DNA of 64,000 nt, taken from positions 148,243-212,242 of the forward strand of contig JACQXK010000004.1 in NCBI GenBank assembly GCA_016208765.1. The letters are read 5' to 3'. A model generated the notes under the pieces. It saw only the letters and a program-made list of their open reading frames with translations. It had not been told where the DNA came from and searched no databases. This document shows positions 1 to 64,000 of this stretch, in pieces (position 1 is the stretch's first letter; every line of letters starts with the position of its first letter). Source of the DNA: Candidatus Omnitrophota bacterium (GTDB taxonomy: Bacteria > Omnitrophota > Gorgyraeia > Gygaellales > Profunditerraquicolaceae). The translations under genes were made by a program, and so were the position numbers.

Positions 1-330
1 ATACATGGCAAGCGTACGCAAAACCTTATGGCCGCATTTGTCATACCATGGTGGATTTGAAAAGATCCTATGAAATCTTTCATTAGGCCCCAAGCAATCA
101 TAAAGATCTCCGCAGCAGACCTTCACATTTTTAAATCCACTCAAGTTGGAAACAGCATCATCAAAAGCATCTCTATTAATATCAGTGGCAACAAAACGGA
201 CACCCTCAACGTTCTTACTGCTCATAGCTATAGCAGCAGTCAATATTCCGCTTCCTGTGCCAATCTCAAGCAAACGGCATCCAGTGTGAATATTTTGGCC
301 TATTACATCAACAGCCATATCTGCCAATTG
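1..330 (-). other. HemK/PrmC-type (NPPW motif IV) SAM methyltransferase domain, truncated by the window edge (LEIGTGSG ... DINRDA ... NPPWYDK)
   Basis: Motif I at about 235..260 and NPPW at about 25..45. Confidence 0.55.
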
Positions 331-11259: not shown

Positions 11260-11268
11260 CCATTTTTA
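11184..11268 (-). other. Frameshift junction splitting a class-I SAM methyltransferase domain (motif I, VGCGDGS, is in the upstream frame; post-I and motif II/III, FDLVLFNESL...LLNKYGKILIID, are in the -1 frame). Candidate one-nucleotide indel near the TTTTT/GGTCTGG run at 11238..11250.
   Basis: The giant frame reads ...ILSVGCGDGSLEKLLLKNGCVVFG then nonsense and a stop. The overlapping -1 frame reads ...GAYVGSAYAAIEIMQRVALNCPEIAAPGGFDLVLFNESLNSMRGIELVLRQAFSLLNKYGKILIIDYANP, matching the equivalent stretch of the two other methyltransferase copies in this gene (GISVEGWELDRQLY / GINVFGCEFNNSLY). Confidence 0.6.
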
Positions 11269-38200: not shown

Positions 38201-41200
38201 TGCGGTGCGTAAAAATTACGGCTCTCTTACCTATATATTCCGGCGCAGACTCTGATTTTCTTAAAAACTGTGACATTCTAAGTAAAACATCAATAAAATT
38301 ATCCCCGCCACAAGGCTTAACCAATGCATTATTCCCAAAATAATATTTTTTGTATAATCTTTGCTCATCAGGAGTAAGCTCTTCAAATGATTTATTGCTA
38401 AAGTTTCCGGAAGACTTAGCAATAACTCTTTCATCGGTAACTAAATTTATATTCATACCTTTATTATTTAAATATTCAACAAATGCCTGTGCTGCTATTT
38501 TAGCCCGGCTCAAAGGGCTGGTAATTACTATGATATTTCCCCCTATTTCTTCTTGGCCCAAACCGCTCTCAAGCAACTTAAGCCAAATTCTATGAGCTAA
38601 GCCAGAAAGCCCTAATGCCGCTTGCTGCGTAGGCAGATTAATATCACTATTGCTCCTTCCCTGAGGGATCCTTTTTGCATTTGCCAGAGTTTCCGGATGG
38701 CTCACCAGACAAATCCCATTAAATCCCGTAGGATATGGAGAAAAATTATCAATTATAGTAAGCTTAGAAGTATCCCCGTGTACCAAAACCCCCGGCAGCC
38801 CAGAAACTTTTTTTAAAACCAGTGACTTGGCAACAGCCACTTTCACTTGTTTTATTAAAACATCATCTCGCGGAGCAAAAGCTAATGTAACCAGGGCCTT
38901 TTCAAATTCATCTAAAGTTATATAAATCTTAGCAAGAAAACTATAGGCATAAATATTTTTAGCCCAAGTTTCTATGGCAAGCATACTAAGAACAATTGCT
39001 TTGTTAGTGTCTTTTGGGAAATATATCTTTGCCAGACCAAGATACGCTTTAGATAAATAAGGCTGGTCATCAGCATTAATTTTCTTTTGCTTTGGTGATC
39101 TGTTTGTTATTGTCTGTATAACACTCTCAAAAAGTTTTCTTGCTTGGTTTTTCTTTCCCTTGGAAAACAATACCTCCGCCAGATTGACTATTCTTTGCGG
39201 GTCATGCGGATAATGCCCTTGGACGATACGGATCTGTTTGCCATCCGGACGATAATCACTCGCAGGCCTGCCTTTTTTCTTTCTGGTTTTCTGAAAATTA
39301 TCTGGATCATCACCAAAACTGCGGCCATTTTTCTTACCCTGCAGTGGCGAGGAAACAGCAGCTTCGGAATTGCCTAAAGGACTTTGCGCAGTAAACACTG
39401 CTACCAAAGCGCCTAATATTTCTTGAGTTTGTAGATGTGATTGTGAGTAAGATTTATTGGGATGGGCTTGATTTAAAATTACTATTATAAATACCTCGGG
39501 AGGAGCGCGGATCCCGTTTAGAAAAACAACTTGCCTATCTTTTAAAATAGAGGTTTCTTGTCCATACCTTAATATTGTAGATCTAACCATTGTTCTTGCC
39601 AGCAGAAATCCATTTAAACCTAAAGTAAATTTTAGGGTTGGTTGTTGCGAAAGGCTACTGTGTGCCGACACAGGAATCCGGGGAATATCTGCTGTTTTGG
39701 CTACTGCTGAAGAGGCATTTTCGCAAAGTCTGTCCAATCTTTCCCGGGGAGACTCAAACTCAGGCGCTAATACTAAAACCTCTTCAAGAAATTCTATTGC
39801 CTTTTTTCTATACGCGTGCATAGCGGCAATTTTGTTAAAAAACCGATAATGTATTGATCCTGCTTCAAAAATAGAAGCCACATTATTATATATGTATGCC
39901 AAAATCCAAGCCAGGGCTTCTCTTTGCTCATGCTTACGTTGAATTCCTTTCTCATAAACGATTCTTTCCAGGAACTGCGGATCCGGCATTAAAACCTTCC
40001 CATTTGGAGAGATGGAACCTACGCTAATATGCACATTTTTATAACCTTCGGAATCAACAGCAACTAAATTATTGAACCCTAATTCTTCTAATAAAAGATA
40101 CACAAAAAGAGACATCTGGCCACAGGCGCAAAGCTGCGAATTTAAAATCACAGAAAGAAACTCATTGCCTGAATCAACCATATTCTTAAACAGTTGCTCA
40201 AGCATTTCAATATCCGGCTTTTCAATAAACAGATAGCTGATTCTTTTAAAAGTTGGAGCAAACAACAAAGGCTTTTGGGAATCCATAGAAAAAACATCTT
40301 CTTCTTCGCGCCATTCATTTAACGCAACAAATACTTCTTCAACACTCCTGCCACGAAGATGCCTGCTTTCAATAAATGGCTGCACCAATAAAGTTCTAAT
40401 TTTGTGAAGATTACCTGAGTGCTTAAGTGGAGAAGAAGCGCAGCCTGGGATAATCCCTTTTAATCTATCTGTATTCCAAAATAAATACCCGTCCAAATCT
40501 GCGCAATAGTGAATCCAAGAAAAAGTTGCTTTTAATTTGTTGAACCCGCGCAATGTTGGCCCAAAAAGCACGAAGAATAAATCGTTTTTCAGTAATATCT
40601 GCGCAATTCTCTCTTCAAGTAATTTCTCTCCTTCACAAGATGCACCCATGCCATAATAATAAACAATTTTACGCCTGCTTGTTTGCGGCAATAAAGAAGC
40701 CTTCAAATAATCACCCCAGACAAAAGAAAGCTGTCCGGGCCTTACTAACCCTTTTTTTATACCAAATTCATTTATCCGCAAAGATTCCTTATATAGCTGC
40801 CTGTCTAATTCCCAACCTTCTACTGATATTCCAAATATATGTGCCAAGCCCAAAGCAAACACACCATTACCTGAACCTAAATCCAGAAGGCTTAAATCAA
40901 AATTGTTTCTAAGCTTAGCGATTGCCTTCGCCGCCAAAACAAATGCCTCATCACAAGAAAGATAATGGACCCCTCCAAAGGTTAAACGCCTCGGCCACAT
41001 ACCTGACAATTTCTCTCGCAAATATCCAGAAGCCCACTTTAAATCAGTATTGAATCTGTCAAAATAATACTGCTGCATTAAAGCCAAATAATTAGAAGCA
41101 AGCTCACAAATACGCTTATCGCGGTTTGTCTTAATTAAATCCACCTTAAGAGTTACTACGCTGCTAACCACAGAGCTTCTTTCTTCTCTTAATGTATATA

Positions 41201-44200
41201 GTGATGTTTCAATTTTTTCTTTAGCAGCCAAGGCTGAAGATGCGCTGTAACTTTTACCCACTGTCCCGATTGGGCTGCCGGAAGGCAGGGGAATAGTCTC
41301 TGGTTTGTTTTGTTTAGCTGCTCTTAATACTATTTTATCTAAAATCTGCTGATAAAAACCTGCACTTCTTTTCTGATCGCTTTCTGTCAAATACTGCCTT
41401 AATTGCTCAGGATTAATTTTACCCGGGTGATTTTCATCCTCAAAGCCAAATCTCTTATCATGAAACACCTTAATTAATGTATTATTAAAAATCATTACTG
41501 CACTTCTGATGCAAATCCTGAAGCTACGCCAAGAAATCTTTTTAGCATTAAGCGCATCTACAAGCTCAGGAATAAAAGTATCTAAGGTGGAGAAAAACAC
41601 CTTTCTCTGAAATGACGCAATATGCTCGGCATCACCATTATGCCCTTTAACCGGAATAGTGCGTAGATTGGAAACCCTGTCACCAAGTTTGTCTAATTTC
41701 ACAACAAAGCCTATAAAATCTGCCTCACCCGCTATTTCCCGAAGATATTCACATTCAGGCTCACCTTTTTGTTTTGATATCAGCTTTACTGCCCGGCAAA
41801 CATCCTTGCCAAAAAACTGCAACAATTCTTTTTCGCTCGCATCTTCCTCTTCAATGCTGTCATGCAATATGGCAACAATCAACATAAACCAAACATTTTT
41901 CCAGCTGAAATACCTTTGTATTTTAACCTCACGCAACAAAACATTGACTATATCAAAAACATGAATAATAGAAGGGGTTATGTTGTTCTTTCTCAAAACC
42001 CCCATTTGTTTCTTAGCTACAATCTGCACTGCCTTATTCAGCAGCTCCCTTTGCTCTAGTGTAAATTTAATATTTGTGCCTCTTAATACCCTCTTAATAA
42101 GATTATTAGACAACCTTCCGGAATAGAAATGAATATCTCGCTTTCTTATTTGCAGTTCTTTGGCAAACACGGTCCTTAAAGTCTCTATCTCCACATCAAC
42201 CGGGATCTCTACACCAAACAGATAGCGTAAATACCCATCACCTTTTGGCTGAGGATTCAAAAACGAAACAATGTTAATATTATTAACCTTAAAGAACCCT
42301 GTTATATCCACAAACTTTATTATTGAATACTTGGCAGAAAATTCTATTGTCCATACCTTCTTTGGCCGCCTTGCATATTCTTCATCATAATAATCTTCAA
42401 TGGAGGCTAAATCATTTTTCAGCATTTCTATGCTGTTAACGCACGAACGCTTAATCAGAATGTCTAAAAGCATTTCCCTCTGGTTATCCAGCCTTCTCAT
42501 CTGCAAGATAATCCCTACATCAAGCCCCAATGCTTCAAACACCGCAAAAAATATATCATGCAGAATTCCCGGGCGCTCATGCTCAAAGACAAGCTTGAGC
42601 TTAAGAGTGGCCCGCTCTGAAAGTGTCCTTCCAAGCTCAGATACCTGACAATTAGTACTGTCAACCGAAGAAGATGCAGCCATTCTATTCGTTTCCTCAC
42701 AAGAGCCTAATGCTTCCCTCTCTCTTTCAGCATTACCTGAAATATTAAACCTGAGTATTTCAATCTCTTTAAATATCCCGGAGAAATCCAGAATAGGATA
42801 TGCTGCCCTTAACCTATCAGCTTCTTCCTCTAAAGTTTTAATAACTTTATCTTCTTGTAAGTGCAATTTTAACACTTCCAATACCCGCTTCTTAAACATA
42901 TCAACCATCTGGATACTTAATTGTTCGTGTAATTTCTCTATTGCGCCTTTATAGTGCCGATTTGTTCTTTTACTTACATTAAAAAACTCATACACAGTAA
43001 CTTTATCATAACCAAAATGCTTTCCGAGGCCAGAATATTGCAGTCCATTGAAGATCCTTGAGCTTATAAGCCTGTTTATATCTACCGGGGAAAGCGGACC
43101 AAGATTTACTTTATAACTTAATCTTTTTATTGCGCTCTCTAATAATAATCCTTCTTCATAGTTAAAAAGTCCGCTCAAATATTTAAATGCCATTGGCTTA
43201 CAATCACGTAATAAGCTATTTAACACACCTTCATAACCAACTTCATTTTCTGCCAGCTTGGTTAATTTATCACAGGCCTCATTAAATCTGCGCAACACCT
43301 GAAAACGGCTGCAACCCAAAGCCTCGGCTATATCCGGATATTTCTTTCTTGAATCCGCAAGTTTAAGCGCTACTATTTTCTTGGCCAGGTCAAGCCCATT
43401 CCTCCCAACTTTGTCTAACCTGGTTAATAACGTTGCTATGAATTTATTATATTTAGCCCTTCTATAATCATCTAACTGCAAAATACAAGTAACAAGATTT
43501 TCTGTTAAGAATTCCCTGAGCCTGCGCTCTACCATATCTTTTGCCTTATGATTAAGCCCATTACCCAATCTTTGGTAAATTCCTCTTACACTAAAAGGCT
43601 TACAATTCCATCCTATTAATGCGCTGCCTATATACTCTTTATTTAACCCCTTTTCTACTGCAAATGGTACATCTAAATCTTGGACATTCACTACTATAAT
43701 TTTTATCGCGAACCTCAACAAATCTCTCTGGAGTTTATTCAAGATTCTCTCTTCATATGAACTCCGCACCACACTCAAAAGCAAATACTCGTCAAAAAGA
43801 TTGAATGCCATTCTTAACCAACAACGCCAATAACTGGCTGATAAAGCCTTAAGCTGCTCTTGAGATATTAAAATTATCGGGATAGGTTGATTATTGCATA
43901 TATGCCTGCGTAAAACACCCGCCGGAAGGCCCAATCCAATCTCAATCTTTCTTAATGTTTCAATCATCACAAAGCTTGTTCTTCCTGCTGCAATATCATA
44001 AATAGTGTTTTTATCAATGCCGGATGCGCGAGCAAGCCTCTCCAGATTAATTCCATCCTGAACAAGCTGCCGGAGGATCATCTGCAAAGCTTTTATATCT
44101 ACTGAAGATCGCGCTGAATACGTGCGTAACGATGAACTGCCTTTCCCGAGGCCATTTTCTTTTATCTTTAAAGGAAAATTGGCCCGCCTCCAAGACACCT

Positions 44201-47200
44201 TGCTATTCCTTAGTTTCCTATAAATCCCAACTCTACCGTAGCCAAACCTATCCCCCATATTCTCATAACTAATAACTTCACCGCTCTTTATATCAACAAA
44301 ACAATGCCTGCTTGATTCCAATATATTCAAGAGATCTCCTGAACCTTCTTTTTTAGCATCAACAACCGCAACTCCACCCAAGCCGAGCAAATTAGCTGCC
44401 TGCTCATAGATTCCAAAACCTTTTAAATCAACGTCACTAATATTAACAGATTTGGCAAAAAATACATGCGGATTGGCGCTGATTAAAGAGTAAGCTCCTT
44501 TTTCTTTTATATCCTGCTGGCTATAAAAGATTATTTTTCTTTCTCTTTCTATTCTTTCTGCAGGATGCCTCCAGATAAAAGAAAACTTAAAAACTTTTCC
44601 TAAGCAATTAATGTCCTCCACTCTGATTTCTTCTGCTCCCATAGCAAATAACTCCCAAATTAACAGATCTCCGCGGGGGGCCATATTTAAATCAAGGAAA
44701 GCGGTATGCGAATAGCTGCCTTGCTTACTTTTATCCATAATATAACCATACAATTTATCTGAATGATTAAGATAACGAAAATCAACCTTTGCAGAATCAA
44801 TAAAATCGGCCTCTGCTGCGTTTGTAGAATAAAATAGGGCAGCAGCATCTCCGGCTGAACAAATATACAACGCTGTCAAATAATCATTATCAGGATTTAC
44901 CACTTTGCAAATTGCCAGATAATAATTAATACATATATCAATTATTAAGCTTCTGAATAAATCAATTTCTGTGTCAATATAAGATTTATAATCACTATAC
45001 TTAAACACCTTTATTCCAAGGGCAGAAGAAACTAACCATTCCCTTTGATAAAAATCAGTTACACCCATACCGGCTTCGCTTAATGCCTCTTGACGCGGGC
45101 TAACCACTGATAATCCTGAGCTGGCACGATCTTTCATCCTGGCTTCTGCAACAAAACCACATAATTCATCTATTATTTTTAAATATAACCTGTTAACCGG
45201 GAACCCTTGCTTTGCAGCAGCGCTAATTTCCGTTTCTTTAAGCCTTTTTAAGTCCTCAAGAAAACGCTGTTTTTTAACAAGCCCCGCTTCACCAAAATCT
45301 CCATTTTCAACAAAATCCCTGATCCTCCTAAGAACAGCTATCTTTACCATCTTATTTTCATAGCTTAAATCAAGCAGGTGCTTCAACAACTCAAATTTAT
45401 CAATACCGGCATTCTCCACATATCTTATTCTCTCGGAAACATCAATGCCGACAGCGCAATACAGCAAGATCTCTTTGATTAATGGCCATATTACCTCAAC
45501 AACAAAAATTAAACCAAAGGTAGTTAGTAAAACACCTGCGATGTTTATGGGGCTTGAAGAATCTCCCGCTGGCTTGGGAGGGCAAAATTCATCATACATC
45601 GCCGCCAAAGTATCACCATCAAACTCTGGCTTTTTACTCTCCGCAGGCTGCGCAATAACCGGCTCTTCTATGCGCGTAGTTATGCCTGCGGCTGCAAGGA
45701 GAACATTCTTATCTTGAACCGGAATTATTTTCTGAAATGGCAGGCCGCGAGGAAAAGAAACATCAATCTCGGAATTATCGCTTCTCTTGAATTCATTATC
45801 AATAAACAAACCGAGCCACTCAGACAACTTATTAAACTGTTCTTTTGTGATGTTATCTATTCCCTTGATTCTAAACAAATAAAAGTGCGGACCACTGATA
45901 ATAACTGCATAATCTCTATATTCACAGAGAGGAATAAGTGCGTCTATAACCTTTTTTGCTTCTTTTGCAGACGAATCATCTTTATCCAACTGGCCAAGAG
46001 AATGCTTTGTCTGCGAGTATAAAATATTATTGTTTCCATCTATGATAGAAACATAGATTCTTATCCCCAGTTCGTTTTCAATGTATCGGGAAAGCTCACA
46101 AAGCAGCACAAGCGGCCTGACGTGCATGAACCATTTTGCATTAACGCAAATATTCATACCTTCCTGAGTAGTTTTCTTCTCTGGAATAACGCTAGAGGAA
46201 GTTTTTATCAAAGGCCTAAAATTACCGTTAAACCCGCCGCTATAGCTCATGGCTACCCCAAACGCCTCATTTAATATATTTAGATATTCCGAAGGCCAGC
46301 AAAAATAATAGCTTAGGTTATAAAACAGTACCTGTGACAAGAAATCCACCGCCCTTGCTTCATCCCCAAGGCTGGCATAACATAAACCAAGATGATAAGC
46401 AGCAGGTACAAAATCCAGTTGGCTAAATAAAGCGTTTGTTAAAAGCTCAATTGCCTCACATAATCTGCCTTGCAGCATATAAATTTTCCCAAGATTTAAA
46501 TACAGCCGGCTTGATCCCGGGCATAGTTTTATACCCTCCCGGTAACAGCAACAAGCAGCGTCAATTCTACCTTGAGATGTTAACAAATTACCTAAAGCAA
46601 GATAGTTATCTTCAAAATCAGGATCAAGCGCAATAGCTTTTTGATAAACAAGTTCCGCCTCCGGGGAATTGCCCTGCAAAAACAGGATATTCCCAAGATT
46701 ATGATGCCCCAGGAGATATTCAGGCCACACCTCAACTGCCCTGCGAAAATTAACCTCGGCCTTTACATAATTATGCAAATAAGCACATATGTTTCCTAAA
46801 CTGCCAAACAAGAATGGAGTAAGCGCCTGTTTTTCAAGCACCTGGATCACGGGATAATAAACACTAAGTATTTCTTTTGTGGGTGTATTTAAAGTAAGGC
46901 TGACCCTAAGCATGGCTTGTCTTACCTCCTCAGGGTTTAGTTTAAAATTATCCCTCAAAACAAACATATTATTTTCAGGAAGATACATGCTTGGGCTTAA
47001 CCCATCCAACCTAAAATAGATTTCCATGAAAATACTGTTATAAAAATCAACCAAGACACCCATGTTATTTGGCATTCTAACCATAACAAGAGTGCAGTTG
47101 CGAGTAACAACCCCGGTAATTTTGTAATCATCCCGGGGCATATTTCTTAAAGCATAACTTAACAATAAATATAATAATTGCGTAAGGCTGTCTTTATAAA

Positions 47201-50200
47201 GTTGTCTTTCAAAAGTTAACCTTGACTGTTCATCCATGCCGCTCATAGACATTTCTTCATATATATCTGTGCCGTTTAAGGCATTAACCAAGAGCCTGGT
47301 TAAAAGACTTTCTCTCCCTTGCGAATTAACGCCAATAACGCTTGAATAAATAATAAGATACTCTGCAATCTTACGGACATACTCAACCCCGGAGAAATGC
47401 TTAGTTAAATACATAATTCCATTATCTAAGTCTATTTGCTTTAATAACTTTGCAAACTCTATAGTTAAATGCATTATATAGAATTCCAGCTCATCACGGG
47501 AATAACCGATGCTAATAAGAGTGCGCCAAAGAAAAACGCTAATCTTCTTCTCCTCTTTGCTCATACATCCCACTCCGGAGCTTGATGAAAACACAATTTT
47601 ATGTTTTGGATCATACCTAACCGTAAAATTTCTGTTGAAATGACTAATCAACCGGCCAACCTTAGTTTGCGCAATCTGAGAATAGCTAAAAGATATACAG
47701 GCATCTTGCAATCCTGTTTTAATAAATTCCCGTAAATCCGCGTTTTCTTTCTCTTGAGCCTTCTCATCCATGAATAAACGAATATTCTTTTGGTTGTAGA
47801 ATTTAAGAATATAGTTTATTCTGTCGCTACGCTCGGCAACAGGAATAAGCCGTACAAGCTCAAGCAATGTCTCCATATTAGAAATCATTCTAAACTCTAA
47901 TTTCGGAACATCTTTTACTGCGTGAGCAAGGTTTTGCATAAGGAAAACAGCTGCTCCTTCACCCTCTCCTTTGAATATTTTAATATTATTACCATAAAAT
48001 GACGTGCCGTCTTTGGTAAATCCGCCAAAGAACTGGCCTACGAACTCTTTGCCAAGTTTAACAATTATCTCCACAGATTTTGCGCCATTAATATTAATTT
48101 CATCTCTTATTACCGGTAAAAAACGGAATTCCTTTCCTGTCCTGGAAATAAAACTAATGCCGCGATAATAACCAAATACATTATTAATCATATCCTCTAA
48201 ATCTATTGTACCAATGCATACAGCAGAAGAAGCCATGAGCGCCACGGGAAGAACATTACTCTTAAATAACCCGGTAACATCAATGCAATTTCTTTTCTTG
48301 CATGTTTTCTCAGACATTAAAGATGTCTCCAGAGAGAACGGTTCTTCAGTTAAGTCAAGAGAAAAACATTTCCCTCCGTTAAAAACATAAATTGCCTTGG
48401 CATTCTTATCAAAATAAGCCTTACTTTGCGAGTCAAGCTTAAAAACAAGCGCGGATTTTATTTGCTGGATAACTGCAGCTGTTAACTCAATCTGCAAAGC
48501 TGCGTGGTTTTTTAAAATATAAGAAGTTAATTTATCCGAAGCAATTACTTTAACCCCACTTACAAAACCATTGGCATCTACTATTACATCAATAAATCTA
48601 CTATCCCCGGAGGCAATAAAATGCCGAGTTTCGTTTTTATCCAAGAAAGCTGAGCCGCCCTCAATAATGCCGCTGATTCTTTCAGCATCCTGCACAAAAT
48701 CCTGTTGAATAATTATCACACCTGGAACAATAATTTGCGTTTTTCCGAAATTGCAAATCGCTTGCATGCCTTCTCGTCCTGCAATCTCTGCATCAAAATA
48801 CTGTTGTTTTGCCAAATCCTCCACCCCATTTTCTCTTGCAGCAACCAATAGCCTCTCCCAGGCAGGCTCAAAGACTCTACGCGCAAACCAAACCAGCTCA
48901 AACTCAACTGACTCTGATGCCCTTAATATTTTTTGCCCTAACTCCTCAAAACTTAACCCTTTATTTTTAGTCAAGATGGATAATATCTGATGGCCTGACA
49001 GCTTATCGTTAACAGCACACATATCAGAAGCAAATATTCCTAAGGCTTCTTGCATAACTTGCCTAATGGCTACAACTCTGTTATCATCCTTTTGCTCAGA
49101 TAATAACCCTGAGAGTGTATTTGATAAAAACTCCCCGCCATAATAATCCTTGAGCGCAGGGTAGAACTTTTCGGTCAATCTCAAAAGTAAAATCATTACA
49201 ATTTGTTGCGCATTCATTTGCGCGCGCGATTCTTCGCTTGTGACTGCCTCGCTAAGAAACTCGTCTACCACCTTACGATATCCTGGGCCAAATAATTCTG
49301 TAAATGCCATCAAATAAGGATTAAGAATTAATAAATACAACCCGCGGAGCTTATCCCGGGCCTGATTAAATAACTTATTTTCTTTTTTCTTAGCACTGCT
49401 TTTTTTCTTTTTTCCGTCTTTAAACACCGGGTACTGATCAAGCTTGCCTAACTCCTGTTTGGTTTCTGCTGAGGCTTCTTCCAAGGCTGCGGCAAACTCA
49501 GGCCTTGAGCAAAATACATCAGCCGCCTCTAAAAATGCTGGTATTCTTTCCGGGGCCAGCACAACCGCCAATTCTTCCACCATAACCCTAAACAACTTTT
49601 GTTTATTATCTGCATCGTCTAATAGATAAAGCGTGTACTCCTCATCCGGATAACGCACAAAACAAGTAACTCCTGACTTTTCAAACAATAAAAGATCATT
49701 GCGAATGATCTTATGCGCGTCGTCTAATTCATTGTTCACGATACTAATAAGAATAAGTATCTGGTAATCCAATGGCTGGACACCGGATTTTCCTTCCAGC
49801 TGGATCAATTTCCTGAGCATTTTAGCTGCATCGGCAAACCTTAATTCAAGAAGATACAGCCGGGATAAATGACGAAAATTATTTGGATATTGCGGGTAAA
49901 TATTAATTGCTGTTTCCAAGGTTCCGATCGCGTTCTTTCTGTCATTACTATAAATATACGCCTTTGCCCTCATTTCCATAATTTGCGCTTGTTCATGCAG
50001 ACTCTTCACCTGTGGCAGCAACTGTGCAGAAAGCTTAACTACATCAGCAAATCTTTCCTGTAAAAGCATTATCTGCATTAACTGCCTCAAAGAATTTAAT
50101 TCCTCCCCGGGGATTTTACTATTTCCTAACATTGTTGCTTCTGCTGCGGCATAATCTCCTACCTGCATAAAATACCCGGTACGCGCATAATTGATATTAA

Positions 50201-53200
50201 CTCCAATGTCAGTTCGCACATCCTCTCGCACATCGTCACAAAGCTTATCTGTTGCATTCACCACCTGAAGAAAATAATCTTCCGCCTCTTTATACCGGGA
50301 TTGCCTTAAGGAACAAAGACCGAGATTCTGCAGCGCATCAACCTTCAGCATGATTGAAAGCCCGGATATCGCCAAAACGCGGCTATAAATCGTAGCAGCA
50401 GAATCATAATCTCCTTTTTGCATAAAGTTATACGCGGCAATCATTTCATCTTCCGGATTTGGACGGAAATATTTTATCGCGGAACTGGCAGCTAACTTAC
50501 CCTCTTTAGGAATAATTATTAAGGTAACGGCTTTTTTATTCTTAATATCATTGTAAGCCCGAACACTCCAGCCATGTTCTGCGGCCACGCTATAAATTGT
50601 TTCTCCTCCAATTCCTGAATGCCCGGCAGAAGAATCTCCTGTTGAAATTCCTTTTACAAATACTAACTGCCTATTAAGCTTTGTATCTATTAACAACATT
50701 TCCTTAGGAAATTCTCCGCTGTTACTATATTTAACAACAATTGTTTTTGTATTTTCGTACAAAGCAAGAACGATTTCCCCAAACTGACCCGGAATGGCTT
50801 TTAACCCATTCTTTCCTAAATTGCGCATCAATAAATCCAGATGATGCCTATTCACCCAAACCATTGTTTCTGAACTAACACGGCTAATAAAACTAAAAAT
50901 AAAAGCCTTCTTATTCTCCGTTCCTTTAGGAGTCCTCCTGTTTATGCCCGTTTGTTCCCCTCCTTCATTAACATTCAAGTTTTGGCCAACAACAATTGTT
51001 GCCCTCATTAAATCAGCGAGAAAATAAGGTTCTTTCCGTACTTTCCCCTCTAAAGGAAAAATAACTTTTCTTTTTTGAGAAACACTGCGCAAAGCATCAA
51101 AATGCTCTCTTAATCCAGCCTCAATAAAATAACTGTCATTTACAAGCATATTTACAATATTTAAACGGTTTTTAACCCATGGCTCGTCTTTAATGTCATC
51201 AATCTTTATTCCACCGACCATTTCCCGCAACCTGACCAACGCCCCCAAAATAACTGAATCATAATAATAAAACATTAAGTCTAAATTTGAACTTTTAGGA
51301 GCAAATTTTGTAATAGTGTTAAGGTTACGATATAGTTCACTCAAAGCATCAAACAACCTCGCTTTTATTGAAGAGGCATCTGCAAAATACATCTGAACAT
51401 AAATACGATCCGTTCCTATAGGAGTCACATAATCATGCCTGATTTTTCTTAAAATATCTTTTATTTCATCAATCTCTTTCTCATTGAGTTGCCTTGAAAA
51501 GACAGAGCACAAGCAATAAGACAAAAACGCCTTAAAAGCAAATATAATTATATTATAATATCTTTTAATTAATGGAATTAGACTTATTTTCCTCTCAAAT
51601 ATCGGACTTGAAGCCACAGAACCATGAAGGGCTTTATTAAAGTCTTTAGTAAGTGGCATAATAAGAGGCACGGAGTTAGAAGAGGCCCTACTGGCACATG
51701 GGATAAACCAGCCACGCCCCGTTGCAAAGCTGCAAATGTCCCCCACCCCGTTAGAAATAAGTTTAACAAAAGCCCAGATAAAATTTCTAACGGGGTAAAC
51801 CAGCCACGCCCCGTTGCAAATGAACGGATTCTCCCCACCAGCCACGCCCCGTTGCAAATGAACGGATTCTCCCCACCAGCCACGGAAGGTAAAGAATCGC
51901 TCTTTGATGAAACATTTGCAACGGGGCACGGAAGGTAAAGAACCGCTCTGTGATAAGACATTTGCAACGGGGCACGGAAGGTAAAGAACCGCTCTGTGAT
52001 GAAACATTTGCAACGGGGCACGGAAGATAAGACTTTGCCATAAATCAAGACTATTAACAGCACTGCTTGCAGTAAACCCTCTCACCACCGCGCCGACTGG
52101 AGAACTAGAAGTAGCCTTATTTTTTCCTGCTCTTAAAGACACTGCCACTCCTCCAACTGCTAAAACCACTCCTGCGGCAGCTATCGGATGAGGAAACTGC
52201 AGATTTAAAATGCTTGAGAAAATCAAAACAAAAGCTGGGGATGTATTGGTAATACTTTTATTTAAGGAAGTATCGAGTTCAGCCAATGCACGATAGCTTA
52301 AAATCAAACTAACCAAGCTTAAAACAGTTACCATAAATATGCGATAATTAAAAACTATCACATCCCCACCTACAAATATCTTTGCCAAAATTACCATGAT
52401 CGGAAAAGATACAAAATAAGCCCAAGCCAACAGCTTTGTTATCGGCATAATATCCCCGGTCTTCTTTTTAATAATTTCTGCTATAGCATAGGTAAATGAT
52501 GAAGCTATTGCTAAATAAACCCCTACTGCGTTTATGTGTGCATCAATGGCTTTATTCGCAGAAAATACAGAAACAGCAATTACGCCTGCTACAGCCATAA
52601 GTACTCCAATTAACTTCTTTAATGTTACTGATTCTTTAATCAGTAACGGAGCGATGAACACTAAAAATATGGGAGAACTCTTAATAATCACTTCGTTAAC
52701 TAATATAGAATTATATTTAAGACCAAAATAATATAGCGGGGATGACAATATTTGAGAGAAAAATATGCCTAAGCAGATAATAAATACTTCTTTCTTTGAT
52801 ACTCTGGTGTTGTCAATGCTTGAAGTAACACTTGCAGGCTTTATTATTTTTTTCAGGTTAACCCATATTCGATAAGAAAGTAATATCAAAAAAGCATAAA
52901 GGTAGTAGCTAGTCTGGATCACTAATGGCTCTACTCCGGATTCAGTTAATTGCTTCCCGAAGAATGGCTTAACTGCTACTAACATTGCACAAAGCAAAGC
53001 CATAATTACGCATTTTTGCTTAGAAGTTAACTGCAGCGCGCTGGAGGCAATTGCATTAATAAATGACGCCGGCGGGCCGCGGGAGAAAATAATTTTACCA
53101 AATATAGAGCTTATAGTGGAAACCCGGCTTACCCGGGCATCATAAACAGGGCTGGAGGTTGTAATTATCAAAGCGTTTCCCTGTAATTCTGCCATTTCTA

Positions 53201-56200
53201 CAAGGCCGGGAGAAGAATGTAACACTCCGGCATTAGCATCAAAAAGGTAACTCCTTATTCTGTTAACCCTGCCTGAAGCAGTTTGCGAGGGGCGAAAAAC
53301 AAAAGTATCCAAGAATAAATCGCTCGCCATAACCAAATCTACGCTTTCATACATGAATTTACCAAACGACACTAACGCTGCGATAACTGAAAGATTAAAA
53401 TAATCACCTTCTAATAAAAGCGGCCTTTGGCCGTCTTTAGAGTTGAATGTTAAGCCATCCACAGTAAACACATCGTCTTGTTGTTCATGCACCCTGACAA
53501 ATAATTTCTTACCATCAGGACGGGTAAAAATTAGAGGATATGTCTCCCTGTCATCCCGACTCTTGGAAGCACGCCAGCCAAGAAAATTATCAATTTTAAG
53601 AGGGATATTGTGCCAAAAAGCGAATCCTGTCCTCAAAAGACCGAGCAGAGTAACACGGTTATTAGGAAAAATTAAGTATTCTTTTTTCTTCTGCACTGAA
53701 TTATCAAAGCTCCTGAATTCAACCGTATCATTGGGATAATAAACATCAATAACCGCACCATTCCTTGATGTTTTCGCCGTATGTTTAGGAATCAGTTTTT
53801 CCCCGCTTCCGGACAAAATTATCCCCTCCGGCCTAAGTTCAAAAACTACAAAATTGCTTTCATCCTCTCTATCACTAATAACCATAAACCTGCTGTGATG
53901 CGGCATATCTCTATAAATATTAAGCCGGTGATTCCCGGTTGTCCTGTAATAAGAAGCTAACGAAATAACATCTCCTCCAAAAAAAATATTTCTGCTGTTG
54001 TTAGTTTCGGGCACAGGGCAGATCCTTCTAAGGAGGCTAAACAAGATATTTTTTCTCTCTGAGCCGAATTTATGCGCAACGCCTAAGCAAGCGTCCCTAA
54101 ATGCAATAAACGCTTCAGAAATATCAATAAACAAATTCTCTTTATTATCTCCCTTGGCCACTTCACTGATAATCACACGGCCATCTAACTGAAATTCTAA
54201 AACTATCGCCTTTTCTGAATCGCGCAAAATAATCTCAATTTTTCGGTTTGTAATTAAATAAAGCGACATTTCAGAAGAGGTTGAATGCGGGCCGTTAATA
54301 TTTCTTGCGGAGATTCTACCAGAAAGCATATCAGGAATAGTGATTCTTACGTCGGAAAACCTGAAATTCCTACTAATAGGCTCATCTGTATATTCCACTA
54401 AAACAACCATACCTAAATCTGCTGACTTTAAGTCATGAGTTTTCATCCAAGAATACAAGGCTGCTAACTTTTTTGACGCTGTATCAGCAGTAATGCTGGG
54501 CATACGCAAAACAACTTCAGTAGGAGTGGGAGCTCGTCCAAATTCATTCTTAAAAGCAGTTACAATACCCATAATTTCTAATTTCCTCTGTTCTGTAAAG
54601 ACAGCGGATTTTGCCTTTCTTGCTGCAACACTCCTTTGTACTGCTAAACTGGGAAGTTTTTCTTCCGTGCCTTGCGCGTTAGTATTTGCAGCAGAAGAAG
54701 CGCTGTTAACTGCCACCACCGCGCCTACTGGAGAACTTGCATCTTGTTTATATAATGCTTGGTTTGCCTGCTGGAAATCTAATTTATGCGCGCCCTCAAT
54801 ATCAACAGACCTCCCCCCTAATTGCTTAATTAAATCCATTTGCCTGATTCTGCCGTGATTGACATAAAGCATCTGATTATGCCTGCCCCTAAAAAGATTC
54901 GCGATAGCTGCCAAGCCCAGCAGTTTACACATTTTTAAATCTTCAGGACAGGTATCTGCTGAACGATAAAAGTAATCCACTTTACCTGCCAAGCTTACGC
55001 CTAAGCCTGCAGCGGAAAAAACGTTTCCTATAAGCATGCCGGCATTCTCTAACTTTGGATGGCCAAAGGCATCAAGTTTTTTCGGGTCTGAGCCAGCTTC
55101 AAAAGCAGCTTTAGCTATAGGATTCTTTCCAAAGACCCTGGTTAATACAGCTGTATTTTCGCCATAATCCTTGTTTATCTTAACCCCTTCGGAAACAATT
55201 ACTATCGCCCAACCGTGCTTTTTATAATAAGCTCCGACATCAACGGTTAGTTTGTCCAAATCAAGGTTCGGCTCCTCAGGAATCAACGTACGGCTTGCCT
55301 GTATCTGCCTGCCGATTTCTAATGCTACGAACCCGGAATTCCTCCCAAAAACATCTACAACCAAGACTCTCTTGGTGCTGATTGCATCAACTTTTCCGTA
55401 AACTATAAGCGGTATTGCTGCCTGCACGAAGCTTAGAAATCCATAGGTAGTGGCAGTTGACTCAGGCAAAGCAATATCATTATCCATAGTCTTGGGTAAA
55501 CCGATAATCGGAAATTCCGGATGGTCTCTGTGTAAAAGATAAGAAACGCTATTCGTGTCATCGCCTCCGCAGGTAATCAGGCCGTCAAGCCTTAACGATC
55601 TAATATGTCTCCAGAGCAGGCCTGGAACACCCTTAGCAACATTTTCTTTACTATAGGGATTTGTTCGGCTGGTACGGATTACTGTCCCTCCCTGAGTGCG
55701 GTGCGGCTCGAGTTTATGCAATAAAAGAGGCTGAGCCTGGGAGATTAATTTTTCATCCACGAGCCCTTTCCAGCCTTCCCAAATACCGAATAATTCAATT
55801 CCAAACCTAGCTGCGGCTTTTGCCGCCCAATAAATTACCTGATTGTGCCCTGATGCCGGGCCGCCTCCGGTGAGAATACCGATACGCCTCATCGGGGGGA
55901 GGACGTCTGGAGTGACAGCGCTAGCAGCAACCAGTTTACCTGCCACCACCGCGCCTACTTTGTAGGGACGGTTCTGAACTGCGCTTGAAAGTGTCCCGCC
56001 CGGGGACGCTTCTAACCGTGTTTGAGAACCGTCCCTAATTATGGGGCTGGAACCATTTAATGTGTTTAAGAGTAATCCTAATATCTCTAATTTTTTGTTT
56101 TGCTCTAAGTAAAAGAAATACGGGTGAATGAAGATGGTGCCTTCAATAATTAGACAACCGGCAACTTTTGATTTGGTAAGTAAATTTCGCGAGGTAACTA

Positions 56201-59200
56201 AAAAATTAACCTCAAGCGGCGGAGCATTCTGTTGACAGCCGTTAGTTTGTTGAAACAATTTATTTAAAAGCGCTTCCAGATTTTCTTTACAAAATTCTGC
56301 GGATTGGCTGACTATTTGACCCGCCTCTTTCCCACATTCTACAATACTCAAAGATATTCTTCCTTGATCTTGATCAGGCTTTAGCGACAAAAACACATAA
56401 AAACCTTCAGGAAATGTTGCCGGCATACCAGACGGCAACTGCGATGGCACATCTAATGAATAACGTATCACTCCACCAAGCTCTGCGAGGCTGGATGATG
56501 CCTTACTCCGGCTAGCGGCGGATTCTTCTACAAGCCCCTTTGAAAACTCAATCTCAATATATGCGTAGCCATCTTCACTATTCCCGGCAACAATCTTGCC
56601 GCCTAAAATCTTCGTTACAATGTAATCCATGCTAAACATTCCCATGCCATGCCGGGTTTGCATCTTTTTTGAAGTTACTCCGTCTTTAAAAACCAACTGC
56701 CTGCCTCTTGCAAAATCATAGAGCAGGAATTCTTCAGGAAAAGCTCCGGTGTTACTGGCCCTAAAGATAATATTACCGGCATTATCTCTGCTGATATTTA
56801 CCTTAACTAATAATTTACTTCTATCTGCGGCCGCTGTAATTCCATATCCAACACCGCTAAACACGTCTTTAATATTACGCAGGATATTCTCAACTACTCT
56901 CTGCATCAGGCGATTATGCAAATTAATAATCAGATCCACGGCGCTCATGTCCTCAGAATAAATATTAAAGACAACAGCGCGGCCATTAAGATCAACAGTA
57001 ATACTCTGGCTGAATTGGCCCGCCTCCGGCAAAGTTACCGCGCAGCCAAGTTCTCTTTCTGCTGCCTGCGCAAATACCGTCTTGAGGCTTACCGGATCAC
57101 GATTGATCACCGTATTTGTCGCCATAGCAATATAATCCATTAATTTATCTGAAAGCGGTCCATCTTTGCCAAGGATATAAGCGCGCATATCCTGGATTAA
57201 TAATCTGGTTTCTACAGCAACTTCCGAAGGCTGGCTTAATTTTGTGCCTATGGCTTCTATTTCTGTTTCAAGTTTCTTTAATAAATTGACCACTCTGAAG
57301 AGCTTACCCGGAGAATCCAACGGCCCAACAAGCTCGGTATAACCTGATTCTAATTCTTCCAGAATTTTTGCTTTGACGCTCCTTGGAGTATTCATCAACC
57401 TCAAAAGATGATAACGAATCATTGCATAATTACGATGCCTAAAACTATTCAATACTATCTCTTTAACCTTCTTGTTATAAAGCCCCTTGAATCTTCTATA
57501 AACACCCAGATAAAAACTCAATTGCTGGTTCAATGCAAGTATGCTCGGCTCTAAGCTACTTACTTTTTGAATCGCGGCCAAAAGTTCTTCTCGGGCTGCC
57601 GATTCTTTTTCTACAGTATCAAGCATTTCATAATTTTGTCCGGCTTCCTGTAATGCCCTATTCGTATCAAGGGCCCAAGCATTATGCAAAATATCACCCA
57701 AAGTTTTTATCGCAGAAAACAGCTCTGTCTCAGGAAGAGATCTTGATAATCTAATTAATTTAGGAATAATATAACCTAAATCATGAACCGCTGCCCTTAA
57801 GATCCTGGAAAAATGCTCAATTCTCTCAATCAGAGAGCGCTCATTTAAGGCCTCTTGAGCCTGTAAGAGCTGCTCAGGAGTATTTATCCCAATAATTTCA
57901 TCAGCATCAGCGGTTTTAAGCAGCCTGACTATCTTGTTCGCAGTTATTAAAATATCAATTAAATAGGTAAACGGTTTATTTAATAACTCGGCGCATGCTA
58001 ACAAGTCTGCAAAAATGTTCTTTTGCAAGACACATATACCACCATTAAATAAACTTACTTTTTCCAGGTCTTGTGGGGTAAAGGTACGGCTGCCTTTTAA
58101 AACGAAACTTTGTTGTTCCAAAGCACGATCATAATCCCCTGACTCAATGATGCCAACAGCCCTGCCTTCTTCAACAGGTATAACCCCATATGTCCGGCAA
58201 GGCACAGAGTCTCTTTCCCGAGGCATATCAGCAACAATGATACTGGCATCGGCAACAGGATATTCAGGAAGATGATAACCTAAATGGCATTTGATCAATG
58301 AAAGCAAAGTCTCAGGCCTTATCCCCGGCACATCAGCAGGCATAATCATAATATGACCCTGGTTCTTCATCACTTCTAAAATTTTATCTTTAGACTGTTT
58401 TAAGACATCTGCGGTTTGAGAACCAATACATTCGTGAAATTGGATATTCAAATCTGTATAATTATTCCTGATATACTCACACACATAATCTTCTGCCACT
58501 CCAGTTAAGACCAAAATCGGAATATTATTGTCCGTGCCTTTTGAAACATTCCTTAAAGTATCCAAAATATAACCCAACATCGGTTTAATTTGCCCTGCAA
58601 CAGCAATACCTAATCCGAGTTTTATGCGAATGCCCATATCAACCAATAATTTCTTAATCCTTCCGCTCTTGCCACCGGCAAGTAATACTATGCCGACATT
58701 TTTAACTGCGCTGTGTTTATCAGTAGCTTGTTCATCATTAAAAATTTCTGACATAGATACAAGCCTTACACCACCGGGAGTGGAAGTTGCGGCGCTTGAA
58801 GCCGAATAAACTTTATTTTCTTTATATTTATCAAGCATTTGGTTTATTGTTGCGGCTTTTTCTCTGATTTCTCCTGAATTTTGAATAAAGTCTTTTGATG
58901 ATAATCTGGTAATTTCTTCTACTATGGGCCGTATTTGTTCTACAAAAGAGACAATATGCTTCCTCCTAAATTCCCCCCAAGTAACCCCTAATAATTTCAC
59001 ACGCTTAAATTTCATTTTATCAAACCCCTGCAGGCCCAAAAGAAAAAGGTGTTGTGTACTTTGAGTGCAAGCCAATACTGGATCGTCTATCTTAGTAATC
59101 TGCAAGAGCCTTAACAGAAATCTTTGCATTTCCCAAAGGACTTCTTCTCTGATTTCTGCAGGAGTATACTGATTAGTATTATTCATAAGAAAGTAAGTAT

Positions 59201-62200
59201 TAATTACCTGCATCCTGTTCTTGCAGATATGGCAAAACAGGTTGAATACCGTAAGCCTTAACTCTGCCTCAGTCATTTCTAAACTTGAACGCGGATTGAT
59301 AGATAAAAGAACGATCCTCTCTTTCTCACAACCACTTTGTGTTTGTAATACTGCTGCAAAAGGCCTGCCAAAACGGCTTAAAACTTTGCTCAATAATGAG
59401 TTATTTATTTCTTCAGGGGTGAAGTTAATTCCAAATTGCGCCATCAAATCTGCCAAATACCTGTTAAGCCTAGTTGTGACATTCTCCCTTAATCTTTCTT
59501 CTATATTAAAAGGGTTATTGGCTTTATGTTTCTTGTCTGCTGCAAATATCTTCTCTAATAATTTTTCTTCTTCGCGGTTCTTTCTCTTTGTCGCATTTAT
59601 CAGGCCGATCAAGAAAGTTACAGTCTCAAGATCAAGCGCTGTTCTAATCTCTACTCTTTCCACATCCGCAATAACCGGCTTTAATAAATCCGCCACCTTT
59701 GAGGCAATGCCAAGATACCTTGCCTGAGGGCTAAGGAACATGTCATCAATAAAAAATAATAACCCGTCTTTTGAGAAACCGCCCCTGAAACATCCCCATG
59801 CTCCGGAATTAACCAGGATTTTAAACCTTTCTTCGTTTTCTTTCTTTGAAGCTAAGAATTCTATTGCCAGAGAGTATTCAGTCTCTCTTTTGGGTTTTTC
59901 CAAAGCAAAGATCCCGGATAATCTTAACACCATCCTATTTATTACAGAAACACTAGTCTCCGGCAAGTTAATCCAGCGGTCATTAAACGCTTCTCTTAAT
60001 GTCTGCTCAAGCGACGATGAAACAGTCTGAGATAACCCTGCCACCACTGCGCCATAATTAGCAAAGCTGGATAAAAAATTAGAACCATCTCTATTGCTTA
60101 GAGCGCTACTTGCGGCAGGCCGAGTCACCTCAGCAGATTTTATGAGAATCTCTTCTAAAAACTCTAATGTTGCTTGTGGCGAACGCCCAATATGAATAGC
60201 CTCAGGAGTAACTGCTTTAAACTCATCATTAACTGCAAGAATATTACCTTTAGCTAAACATTCCTTGATTGGATCATCATTTCCGTTTTTATAAAATTCG
60301 TCACCAAAATAAAAGAAATTAATTTTATTTTCTTTCTTACCAACACCTAAAGAATCCGATATTGTGCTTATGAAATCCTCTAAGGCTACATTTTTTTGAG
60401 CAGTAGCACCGGTAATATCAATTGTTGTTCCTCCTCCAGTCCGGATATTAAAAGAAGCGCTTTTATCACCCAAACATCTACTGAAAGATACCATTAAGCT
60501 TTTCCTAGGGTCAGTTTTGTCAGACAATTCTGGGATAGGTTTTACAGCTAAGCTTCCATACATTGTTTGGCCATCATCAGTAACTATCACTCCTCTTGTT
60601 TCTACCCATGGAAATGCCATCTCTTTTTTTACTCCAGTATTTTTAGCTTCATCCTTAAAATCTTTAATATCTTGCGAAGGATAATATTGAATCGTAAATG
60701 GCGGATTCAGGCTTTCTTTCCAGGGTGTTTGCAGAACGAAATATTTATTGTTGCTTTGCGCCGAGTTTATAAACTCTTTCAAAGCTTCCCCCGTTAACCC
60801 AAAATTATTAGACGCTGCATTTTCTATAGCCTGATTGATAACTTTCTCTATAACCTCTTTATTCATCGCATGTTTTAGATTATATTTCCTAATATTACCA
60901 TCATTAAGATCTTCTTCTCCTCTATCAGTAAAACCTATTTTTGTTGCGCCTCCGCTAACATAAAATGTTAAATTTACGAAAGCTCGTTGATCATTTCTCA
61001 TCTGTTTCTTTATAGCATCAACAATCCTGCTCATTTGTTCCTCTTTTGAATTACCCGAAATAATAGCCACTTTCACGCCTTCTCGCAACAACCGCATAAA
61101 AACATAAGCAAGGCGCGTATAATTAGTAACCGATTCTGACTTCTTAGGAAGGATGGTTTTATCAACGTCAAATACAAACCCACCCTGCCGCCTGATTCTT
61201 GCCCAATTTCCTATGATATATGAAATAACTCCTCCAACAATAGGGTCATCTTTAAACAACCCTAATTGTCCATTTACCCACAACCTTCTATCAGCACTTA
61301 ATGTTGCAAGGACCAACCTTCCTGCATCTTTCTTCAGATCAACTATTTTAAAACCTGCCTTTTTAATTCCAAAAAGAGAAATAATTGCTTCCCGCAACTC
61401 AGTAGAAAACATTTCTATTTCATCTGACTCAGCCTTAACTGCAACACCGCTAACTCTGCCCATAGACACATCGGTAACCTCAGTTAAATCATTAAAGGTT
61501 CTCTCAACATCCTCATCCCTTAAATAACTATCTAAGACATAATCAACGTAACTGCTAATTTCTTTATCAAACTCAACTTGTGCATCACTTTGCATATCGC
61601 TTGCGATAAAACGATAAATTTGCTTCAGCTTTCTTAACAACTCATTGCCTCTTCCGTCACGCTCCCTTCTCATTACTCCAAGATTTATCTTTACCGCCGA
61701 TTTAGCATTTTCAATCGCTTCTTTAATTCCGGGAACAATGAGCACCGGAGCGATATTCTTTTCCAAAGAGACATTTGAATAAATAATTACATCAGCTGTT
61801 TCTATCGCTTCTTTTGCCTCTTGAGTGATGGAAACTGTTTTCGCACCCCGCGTTGAGGAAAAACTGCTAATAGCTTCCGCTACTTGGGGAACATGTTTTT
61901 TATCTATTTGCCTCGTTGAGATTTCTATATCTTTCTTTAATACCTGCATTTCTTTTGTAACCTCAAGTACTGTAAATCTATTTGGTAAACGATAAACAAT
62001 GTCTTCTGTTACCCTGGCTAATTCATCAATAAAGGATTGAACATTAAATTCATGAGTATCGTTATTAACCAACCACATACCAATAATTGGCGACTTAGAT
62101 TTATAATGCGTTAAACTTTCTTCTGAAAAGTGGATTGTTCCATCTTCCCTGATAGCAACCAGATGCTGCCTTTGCTCTGTCGGAAGAATTACCCGATCTC

Positions 62201-63917: not shown

Positions 63918-64000
63918 CCTTTCAATAACTGCCCCATCCCAAGTTACAAATGCAGCAAAGGCCGCATTAATTAAATATTTAAGGTACCCCGTAGGCCCTG

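Follow-up and report, generated by a model that had tools for sequence, protein, structure and literature searches.

A ten-helix EamA/DMT transporter module within an Omnitrophota giant gene and a peptide motif recurring at the module junctions

The stretch of DNA analyzed here, hereafter the window, comprises 64,000 nucleotides from a Candidatus Omnitrophota bacterium (assembly GCA_016208765.1, contig JACQXK010000004.1, positions 148,243 to 212,242 of the forward strand). It covers part of a giant gene of the Omnitrophota type, in the "multi-enzyme" class, whose gene-sized modules each correspond to an entire enzyme, regulator or membrane protein. Within this gene, positions 52110-53033 encode a full two-repeat, 10-helix transporter of the EamA family, in the drug/metabolite transporter (DMT) superfamily, which is under purifying selection. 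Judging from the sequence, this module and most of the gene-sized modules are bracketed by a short junction motif, a pattern that appears to be new. We see a roughly even chance that the giant chain is cut at these motifs into separate proteins, in the style of a polyprotein. The features on which the argument rests are listed below, with residues numbered from aa 1 at nucleotide 63917.

11187..64000, minus strand: giant open reading frame 1 (ORF1), a multi-module array of 17,605 codons that runs off the right window end
1..11265, minus strand: ORF2, which continues the gene for 3,756 codons in a second frame, up to and beyond the left window end
53049..53156, minus strand: spacer before EamA (aa 3588-3623), opening with TSSPV and containing the near-palindrome TTCTCCCGCGGCCCGCCGG at 53069-53087
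53034..53048, minus strand: N-side junction ASSAL (aa 3624-3628), 7 residues before the first transmembrane (TM) helix
52110..53033, minus strand: EamA/DMT transporter module (aa 3629-3936), 308 aa, 10 TM helices, predicted N-in/C-in
52056..52109, minus strand: C-side bipartite junction SSSPVGAVVRGFTASSAV (aa 3937-3954), beginning 8 residues past TM10
51615..52055, minus strand: spacer after EamA (aa 3955-4101), with tandem 46-nt (x3.3) and 38-nt (x2.3) repeats
51600..51614, minus strand: junction ASSPI (aa 4102-4106), which opens the next module; ASSPV in the orthologue described below

The transporter module and its giant frame

A polytopic EamA/DMT domain of ten helices had been proposed at 52110-53040 (aa 3626-3936) in an original prediction made by reading the sequence, and family, helix count and fold all bore it out. 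A Kyte-Doolittle scan gave about 10 hydrophobic peaks across 52110..53040. The isolated 308-aa module matched Pfam EamA (PF00892) twice, with E=2.2e-20 and 73.8 bits against a cut-off of 28.2 bits, and also gave a weak full-length match to Pfam TPT. AlphaFold2 with a 33-sequence alignment produced ten TM helices at a mean predicted local distance difference test score (pLDDT) of 88.7 and a predicted template modelling score (pTM) of 0.86, and TM4 and TM9 of the model are broken, as in DMT proteins; the single-sequence model was unusable (pLDDT 42.6). All 39 Foldseek matches in the PDB at E<=0.001 were DMT-superfamily transporters (TM-scores 0.49-0.82), led by TPT 5y78, YddG 5i20, LicB 7paf, SLC35 and PfCRT with TM-scores of 0.61-0.82. 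The module shares with stand-alone DMT transporters (YddG, TPT, LicB and SLC35; TM-scores 0.66-0.82) the two-repeat 5+5 TM fold, the EamA Pfam signature and the N-in/C-in charge bias. On the other hand, it is only 12-15% identical to the solved structures and has neither a start nor a stop codon of its own. A PDB sequence search gave no match.

The positive-inside rule, which the prediction had suggested applying, gave this in silico result: the EamA loops carry 19 lysines and arginines (K+R) on the predicted inside versus 3 on the outside. Ten helices with this bias point to an N-in/C-in arrangement, and therefore both flanks of the module would be cytoplasmic without any processing. An internal TM bundle that inserts after a long cytosolic N-terminal part is ordinary biology of the signal recognition particle (SRP), Sec and YidC. 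Thus the topology puzzle that the prediction saw in a membrane domain with soluble enzymes on both sides was overstated for EamA, which on the modelled topology is no paradox by itself. The other part of that puzzle, namely internal lipoprotein-type and TM segments that are odd in one chain, still stands and is treated below.

The prediction was also right to place the domain inside a giant chain. An open reading frame scan found the minus strand to be coding nearly throughout the window. ORF1 is open from 63998 to 11187, has no upstream stop within the window, and flanks EamA with phosphofructokinase (PFK), CofD, HAD, alpha/beta-hydrolase and methyltransferase modules. Its Pfam content comprises CofD, PFK (1e-45), EamA, TPR blocks, His_Phos_1, two alpha/beta-hydrolases, many helix-turn-helix (HTH) repeats, a DOT1-like methyltransferase, HAD, Response_reg and AAA_18. 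ORF2, open from 11265 to 1, contributes methyltransferases, Response_reg, a full transketolase (N, pyrimidine-binding and C domains) and AAA_18. The two frames overlap at approximately 11187-11265, where one S-adenosylmethionine (SAM)-methyltransferase domain is split at a T5 run (GGTTTTTGG) near 11245. Because joining the frames at this run restores a single Methyltransf_23 match across the junction, we treat ORF1 and ORF2 as a single gene, which exceeds 21,000 codons and extends beyond both window ends. The break itself would be either a genuine frameshift or a sequencing indel.

Multi-enzyme giants are defined by a single ORF of at least 10,000 codons and by many distinct enzyme and regulator Pfam families, none dominant by copy number. 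The window has 17,605 codons, with 3,756 more after the frameshift, and a family content of just this kind. The tRNA and Rfam scans of the window were empty, and neither marker genes nor rRNA were found in it. An alternative genetic code or misread stops can be ruled out: translation table 11 counts all three stops, none is in frame, and stop density in the remaining frames is 7-8%.

This class of Omnitrophota giants, which the original prediction did not recognize, is already established. Giants of up to 85,804 aa have been described with numerous TM regions and with embedded glycolytic enzymes whose predicted localization is doubtful, and their cleavage points were stated to be unknown (West-Roberts et al. 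2023, bioRxiv 10.1101/2023.11.21.568195). A "multi-enzyme metabolic cluster" class has since been delineated, and 94% of giants were found to have a TM helix or a signal peptide (Nielsen & Lui 2026, bioRxiv 10.64898/2026.06.07.730766). The window resembles these multi-enzyme cluster giants and the Archaeovorins, whose ORFs exceed 10 kaa and are tiled with varied Pfam families (methyltransferases, HAD, kinases, response regulators, TPR/HEAT), with TM helices scattered over about 2% of residues, glycolytic enzymes inside, and published localization predictions acknowledged as implausible. The difference is that neither paper mentions EamA, linkers or junction motifs, and that no SecA-DEAD, C39, S8 or dockerin domain was found in the window. 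Literature searches combining Omnitrophota with polyprotein or cleavage found nothing further.

Next to these giants, the EamA module has relatives of its own. An exhaustive HMMER scan with the module found 260 library proteins at E<=0.001, and the 28 of these that were fetched are stand-alone DMT-like proteins of about 280-400 aa. Only six library proteins reached E<1e-30. Five of the six come from Candidatus Omnitrophota metagenome-assembled genomes (MAGs), where they form part of ORFs of 1,914-7,452 aa that bear the NCBI names "EamA family transporter", "fructose-bisphosphatase class II" or "4-alpha-glucanotransferase". The sixth, at 5443-6900 of L001 (JAGYOO010000021.1), is the closest stand-alone relative; it has 485 aa, is 37% identical to the module, and has a Met of its own and, at the N-terminus, a signal-peptide-like extension. 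Ordinary, normal-sized genes surround it, and therefore the EamA clade exists in both free and embedded forms. Close relatives are 37-76% identical to the module and mostly embedded in long ORFs; those with a source name are Candidatus Omnitrophota sequences, and on the sequence side the Omnitrophota assignment rests on these nearest relatives. The comparison with stand-alone EamA proteins that the prediction had called for gave a shared DMT fold, with 21-30% identity for the other stand-alone library homologues. A word-indexed homology search returned nothing for the EamA region with its flanks, nor for the lipoprotein-like module described below; since HMMER found a 74%-identical relative, we take these blanks to be misses of the tool. 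A contig scan with the window protein as query gave no match.

The closest comparison is with a syntenic orthologue, MBI4981741.1 (P0001; locus L002), encoded on contig JACROS010000012.1 of the Candidatus Omnitrophota MAG NC_groundwater_1967. In one frame it has the same order of upstream module of no assigned family, EamA, spacer, kinase-like module and TPR module, with identities of 76% in EamA, 59-65% over the blastp synteny blocks and 85% in the kinase-like module. SS[AP][VIL] motifs stand at the matching junctions, and a hairpin core is shared in the post-EamA spacer. The orthologue's ORF, by contrast, is complete at only 7,452 aa, with a start and a stop of its own. It has no PFK module at the position of the window's PFK, and its spacer hairpin is single-copy. 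In addition, its pre-EamA junction is the exact site of an insertion of about 1,070 aa, made up of a small TM module, a PMT_2-type glycosyltransferase and an aldose 1-epimerase. The ratio of nonsynonymous to synonymous substitution rates (dN/dS) between the two is 0.17 in EamA (308 versus 308 codons, no indel), 0.21 in the upstream module and 0.18 in the downstream kinase-like module. Across six EamA homologues of 33-76% identity, 48 columns are invariant.

A second context comes from a 218-kb metagenome contig (Ga0268284_1000011, locus L003). Its 20.7-kb piece is one open frame throughout, of 6,889 codons, which runs off both ends of the locus. Its EamA module, 37% identical to the window's, sits between a full-length phosphoglucose isomerase (PGI; 1e-222) and CofD, dehydroquinate (DHQ) synthase, PFK and dehydrogenase modules. 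The orthologue's synteny, this contig and the dN/dS values together indicate that embedding of the transporter in giant frames is conserved, independent of assembly and under selection.

These data bear on a skeptical account, in which the frame results from an assembly or gene-calling error, or EamA is a decaying, functionless remnant. The single frameshift near 11245 does speak for it, since it implies either an error in the sequence or a gene that is less than fully intact. However, the full set of stops is counted and absent from the frame while off-frames carry 7-8%, an independent MAG assembly has the identical module order in one frame, an embedded EamA occurs in an unrelated metagenome contig, and neither the dN/dS of 0.17 nor the 48 invariant columns fit a relic. 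We regard this account as largely refuted.

Junction motifs and the spacers between them

The peptide [ASV]SS[AP][VLIA] occurs 40 times in ORF1 (17,577-aa translation), versus 0.74-0.77 expected from shuffles (maximum 3). Ten more copies in ORF2 bring the window total to 50, versus approximately 0.9 expected; a short motif recurring at module junctions is one mark of a processed polyprotein. None of the copies lies inside the 13 Pfam envelopes (P=0.005), and the median motif interval of 260 aa is about the size of a gene. Each enzyme domain stands alone between two copies, as is seen for PFK (motifs at aa 2644 and 3060), HAD (16736 and 16951), the second hydrolase (16034 and 16393) and the transketolase (ORF2 aa 1868 and 2590). 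EamA is bracketed by AIASSAL, followed by QLTSKQK and TM1, on the N side, and by SSSPVGAVVRGFTASSAV, separated from TM10 by RAGKNKAT, on the C side. The serine codons of the motif mix AGY and TCN, so the motif is a peptide-level signal. A DNA or RNA signal was ruled out on the same ground, and the Gly, Asn and Leu codons vary as well.

The position of the motif is conserved, while its sequence depends on the lineage. At the N-side junction of EamA, the ASSAL of the window corresponds to SSSAL in the syntenic orthologue, VSSPV in P0002, ASSAL in P0006, and LDNGG in P0003 and the 218-kb contig. The syntenic orthologue keeps the motif at all orthologous junctions compared, even where one flank is non-homologous; among them, only the second half-site past EamA (ASSAV) is missing from it. 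Breaks in synteny, with the 1,070-aa insertion (PMT_2, aldose-epimerase) just before EamA among them, fall exactly at junctions. Motif use is exclusive by lineage, with 50 SS-type and no DNGG motifs in the window versus no SS-type and 10 DNGG motifs in the 218-kb contig. P0003/P0152 and that contig have xDNGG at the junctions instead, in varied codons. In the contig, EamA is bracketed by HLDNGG and TLDNGG, and full-length PGI, DHQ synthase and PFK each lie between DNGG motifs.

The spacers between paired motifs behave quite differently from the modules. Compared with the orthologue, the post-EamA spacer has a dN/dS of 0.75 and large indels (140 versus 60 aa), and on this measure such spacers evolve almost neutrally. 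Its repeats (51700-52030) consist of 46-nt units that are 93% identical and 38-nt units that are 100% identical, with mutually inverted cores, CCCCGTTGCAAATG and CATTTGCAACGGGG; all three forward frames are stop-free across them. The RNA of the spacer folds as a hairpin array at -160.8 kcal/mol (z=-7.65). Since the orthologue has a single copy of the matching hairpin, the repeat arms were recently amplified in the window lineage. In the pre-EamA spacer, the GC-rich near-palindrome TTCTCCCGCGGCCCGCCGG is 100% conserved in the orthologue although synonymous sites are near saturation. There it is duplicated (7094-7112 and 7946-7964), with one copy at each edge of the 1,070-aa module insertion, and it may be a recombination or insertion site.

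Such hairpins raise the question of whether the modules are expressed separately, either because transcription or translation begins internally or because the RNA is processed at the spacer hairpins, with the frame never translated whole. The strong fold after EamA, another in the pre-PFK linker and the Met that PFK keeps at its ancestral start are all in line with this idea. However, with no stop in 17,605 codons ribosomes cannot terminate between modules, and cutting of the mRNA would yield non-stop messages. No in-frame start codon with plausible context was found before TM1 of EamA, and promoter- and terminator-like sites are not in excess over shuffles. Hairpins were also ruled out as a general junction feature: a junction lay near 24% of the most structured windows when the fold was scanned in sliding windows, and near 21% of all windows. 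We therefore consider separate expression very improbable.

Several further repeats lie in linkers. An inverted repeat at 55963-56037 (35-nt arms, 77% complementary, 5-nt loop) falls exactly in the bipartite linker GSSPI...LSSAV before PFK and is the most structured 90-nt window of the whole fold scan (z -4.0). The transketolase (3868-5592, minus strand) is bracketed by two 79-nt DNA repeats, 78% identical (3457-3535 and 5623-5701), which encode the linker variant HxNSSSAI(E/R)xKxNGP. A dispersed 119-nt repeat family with 66-80% identity occurs at 1886-2042, 3494-3650, 6620-6776 and 17812-17930. At least three of its copies (near 3498, 6666 and 17855) overlap junction motifs, and those at 6666 and 17855 carry the linker variant (S/N)(P/S)IGTVGK...ASSA[VA]. 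A 23-nt perfect tandem is located at 17876-17924.

Neighboring modules and isolated hydrophobic segments

The modules around EamA and the isolated hydrophobic segments of the frame are as follows.

54741..55973, minus strand: PFK module (aa 2649-3059), between LSSAV and ASSPV junctions
53157..54686, minus strand: upstream module of no assigned family (aa 3078-3587), conserved in the orthologue, dN/dS 0.21
50490..51599, minus strand: next module, a GHKL/histidine-kinase-like ATPase by motif inspection (aa 4107-4476), 85% aa identity to the orthologue, dN/dS 0.18
51495-51551, minus strand: hydrophobic segment in the kinase-like module (aa 4123-4141), 21 residues past the junction
45462..45560, minus strand: single strong hydrophobic segment (aa 6129-6152, 45462-45533) with its SSSPI junction (aa 6120-6124)
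17199..17276, minus strand: internal lipoprotein-type signal peptide (aa 15548-15573), KHKSSTLLLIFTIFILSAFFIIFSG followed by C

The PFK module retains an ancestral-looking N-terminus, MRRIGILTGGG. The upstream module is 67% identical to the orthologue over aligned columns, and 65% for the blastp block. Sugar-phosphate or glycan enzymes neighbor EamA in every lineage examined, with PFK in the window, PGI in the 218-kb contig, aldose epimerase in the syntenic orthologue and phosphorylase (by Pfam) in P0152; the fructose-bisphosphatase (FBPase) in P0002 and the glucanotransferase in P0006 are known from NCBI names only. Because of these neighbors and of TPT as the top fold match, a sugar phosphate or nucleotide sugar is a speculative but reasonable guess at the EamA substrate for a host-dependent bacterium.

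Elsewhere in the gene, the alpha/beta-hydrolase modules at approximately 36975-37250 and 14900-15640 (aa 8893-8983 and 16095-16340) share the exact peptides AVFLHGFLVGD and FGHSMGAAL, which suggests that a module was duplicated within the gene. Repeated HTH-containing units form a run at about 22000-25200 (aa ~12,900-13,970), and the C-terminal 300 aa of the syntenic orthologue align at at least five successive positions of this run with 23-31% identity.

The original prediction described the rest of the chain as soluble apart from isolated hydrophobic segments. This is essentially right: the remaining 17.6-kaa translation has few further hydrophobic peaks, such as aa 4123-4141, and the two segments it named are real (aa 6129-6152 and aa 15548-15573). 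The former starts 9 residues past the SSSPI junction. Taken with the segment in the kinase-like module, the single hydrophobic segments begin 9-21 residues past junctions, as would N-terminal anchors of independent proteins. The latter, KHKSSTLLLIFTIFILSAFFIIFSGC, has on inspection of the translation the layout of n-region, h-region and lipobox: KHK, then SSTLLLIFTIFILSAFFII, then FSG ahead of the C. A lipoprotein signal belongs at an N-terminus, and this one is preceded by more than 15,500 residues of the frame. Downstream of it follow DOT1-like methyltransferase, hydrolase, HAD, AAA_18 and SAM-methyltransferase modules, with no strong TM-like segment and only weak peaks, near aa 17115 and the frameshifted C-terminus. 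The topology of an uncut chain, in which a lipoprotein-type signal precedes SAM- and ATP-dependent modules, is implausible.

Processing or a permanent chain

The original prediction offered cleavage or membrane tethering. In our analysis the balance of the in silico evidence leans toward cleavage. We favor processing over a permanent chain because the motif is sequence-specific and lineage-exclusive, the spacers are near-neutral, one internal segment is of lipoprotein type, and hydrophobic segments follow junctions. In the proposed mechanism, the ribosome would translate the frame continuously. As TM1 emerges, SRP with SecYEG/YidC would insert the ten helices co-translationally as five hairpins, N-in/C-in, while the modules on either side, with glycolytic and other enzymes upstream, would stay cytoplasmic. 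The junction motifs would then be recognized, most likely by an endopeptidase or through autoproteolysis. Cutting would release a free transporter of about 310 aa, the translated "intergenic" spacer peptides would be discarded, and the internal lipoprotein signal would become functional once a new N-terminus was made. Extended to the family, this suggests, a little short of even confidence, that the multi-enzyme giant genes of Omnitrophota are chromosomal polyproteins, in which entire metabolic pathways and membrane transporters are made as a single chain. Their separation at lineage-specific motifs would be the work of a co-evolving protease or of autoproteolysis at Ser or Asn-Gly.

Viral replicase polyproteins offer a precedent. 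In coronavirus pp1a (nsp3/4/6) and flavivirus polyproteins (NS2/NS4), soluble enzymes and multi-pass membrane modules are encoded in one frame, a short conserved motif marks each junction, and the products are separately localized. The window frame likewise interleaves soluble enzymes with a multi-pass membrane module and has motif-marked junctions. Unlike the viral case, it belongs to a bacterial chromosome and carries housekeeping metabolic enzymes; cleavage is here a proposal, and the search of the window gave no cognate protease.

The serious rival is a permanent tether, in which the uncut chain is anchored to the inner membrane by EamA and a few hydrophobic segments. The solute may then be channelled to the attached sugar-metabolizing enzymes, and the motifs may be conserved hinges or docking sites. 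The N-in/C-in ten-helix topology would allow this, as it keeps both flanks cytoplasmic without processing. The constant company of sugar-phosphate and glycan enzymes next to EamA (PFK; PGI; FBPase and glucanotransferase by NCBI name) and the failure to find a protease in the window also fit, and in a published survey the TM-only giants (46%) are interpreted as proteins with cytoplasmic domains and a membrane anchor (Nielsen & Lui 2026, bioRxiv 10.64898/2026.06.07.730766). Nevertheless, a permanent chain with this lipoprotein-type signal and these single TM segments would have SAM- and ATP-dependent modules outside the cell. Spacers of palindromic DNA, read in arbitrary frames and with a dN/dS of 0.75, would stay in the protein as junk peptide, and sequence-specific, lineage-exclusive motifs of five residues are not normal for hinges. 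Overall, we consider the tether a less probable explanation, though one to be reckoned with.

A number of points weigh against processing. Cleavage is a hypothesis for the multi-enzyme giants, which have been treated as single membrane-anchored chains (Nielsen & Lui 2026, bioRxiv 10.64898/2026.06.07.730766). The Pfam search gave no peptidase family at E<=0.01 in the 64-kb window, outside of which most of the gene lies. The motif is missing after EamA in P0005/P0006 and, for 120 aa, after EamA in P0003. Nor is there a motif directly upstream of the lipoprotein-type signal, the nearest strict motif upstream being 200 residues away. The TM calls outside the EamA module are from hydropathy only. 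Finally, the motif could serve otherwise, for example in chaperone docking or as a flexible hinge.

The 218-kb contig does contain a Peptidase_M54 (archaemetzincin) module, at aa 1562-1712 of its open frame between two DNGG junctions. It is a possible candidate for the processing protease, and nothing ties it to the motif.

Giant Omnitrophota genes themselves are already established. What appears to be new here is the junction-motif pattern, which makes it testable whether and where the giants are cut. The EamA module is a clean test case, being gene-sized, under purifying selection, topologically self-contained and flanked by a motif that is conserved in position and variable by lineage. If the chain is not processed, the module would be a permanent anchor of a cytoplasmic chain of megadalton scale, as estimated from more than 21,000 residues, which would be unusual cell biology. 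If, on the other hand, the motifs are processing sites, giant ORFs could be split computationally into their real products and the contradictions of topology would vanish. The EamA module would then be an ordinary free 10-TM transporter, and bacteria would be using a virus-like polyprotein strategy for housekeeping metabolism.

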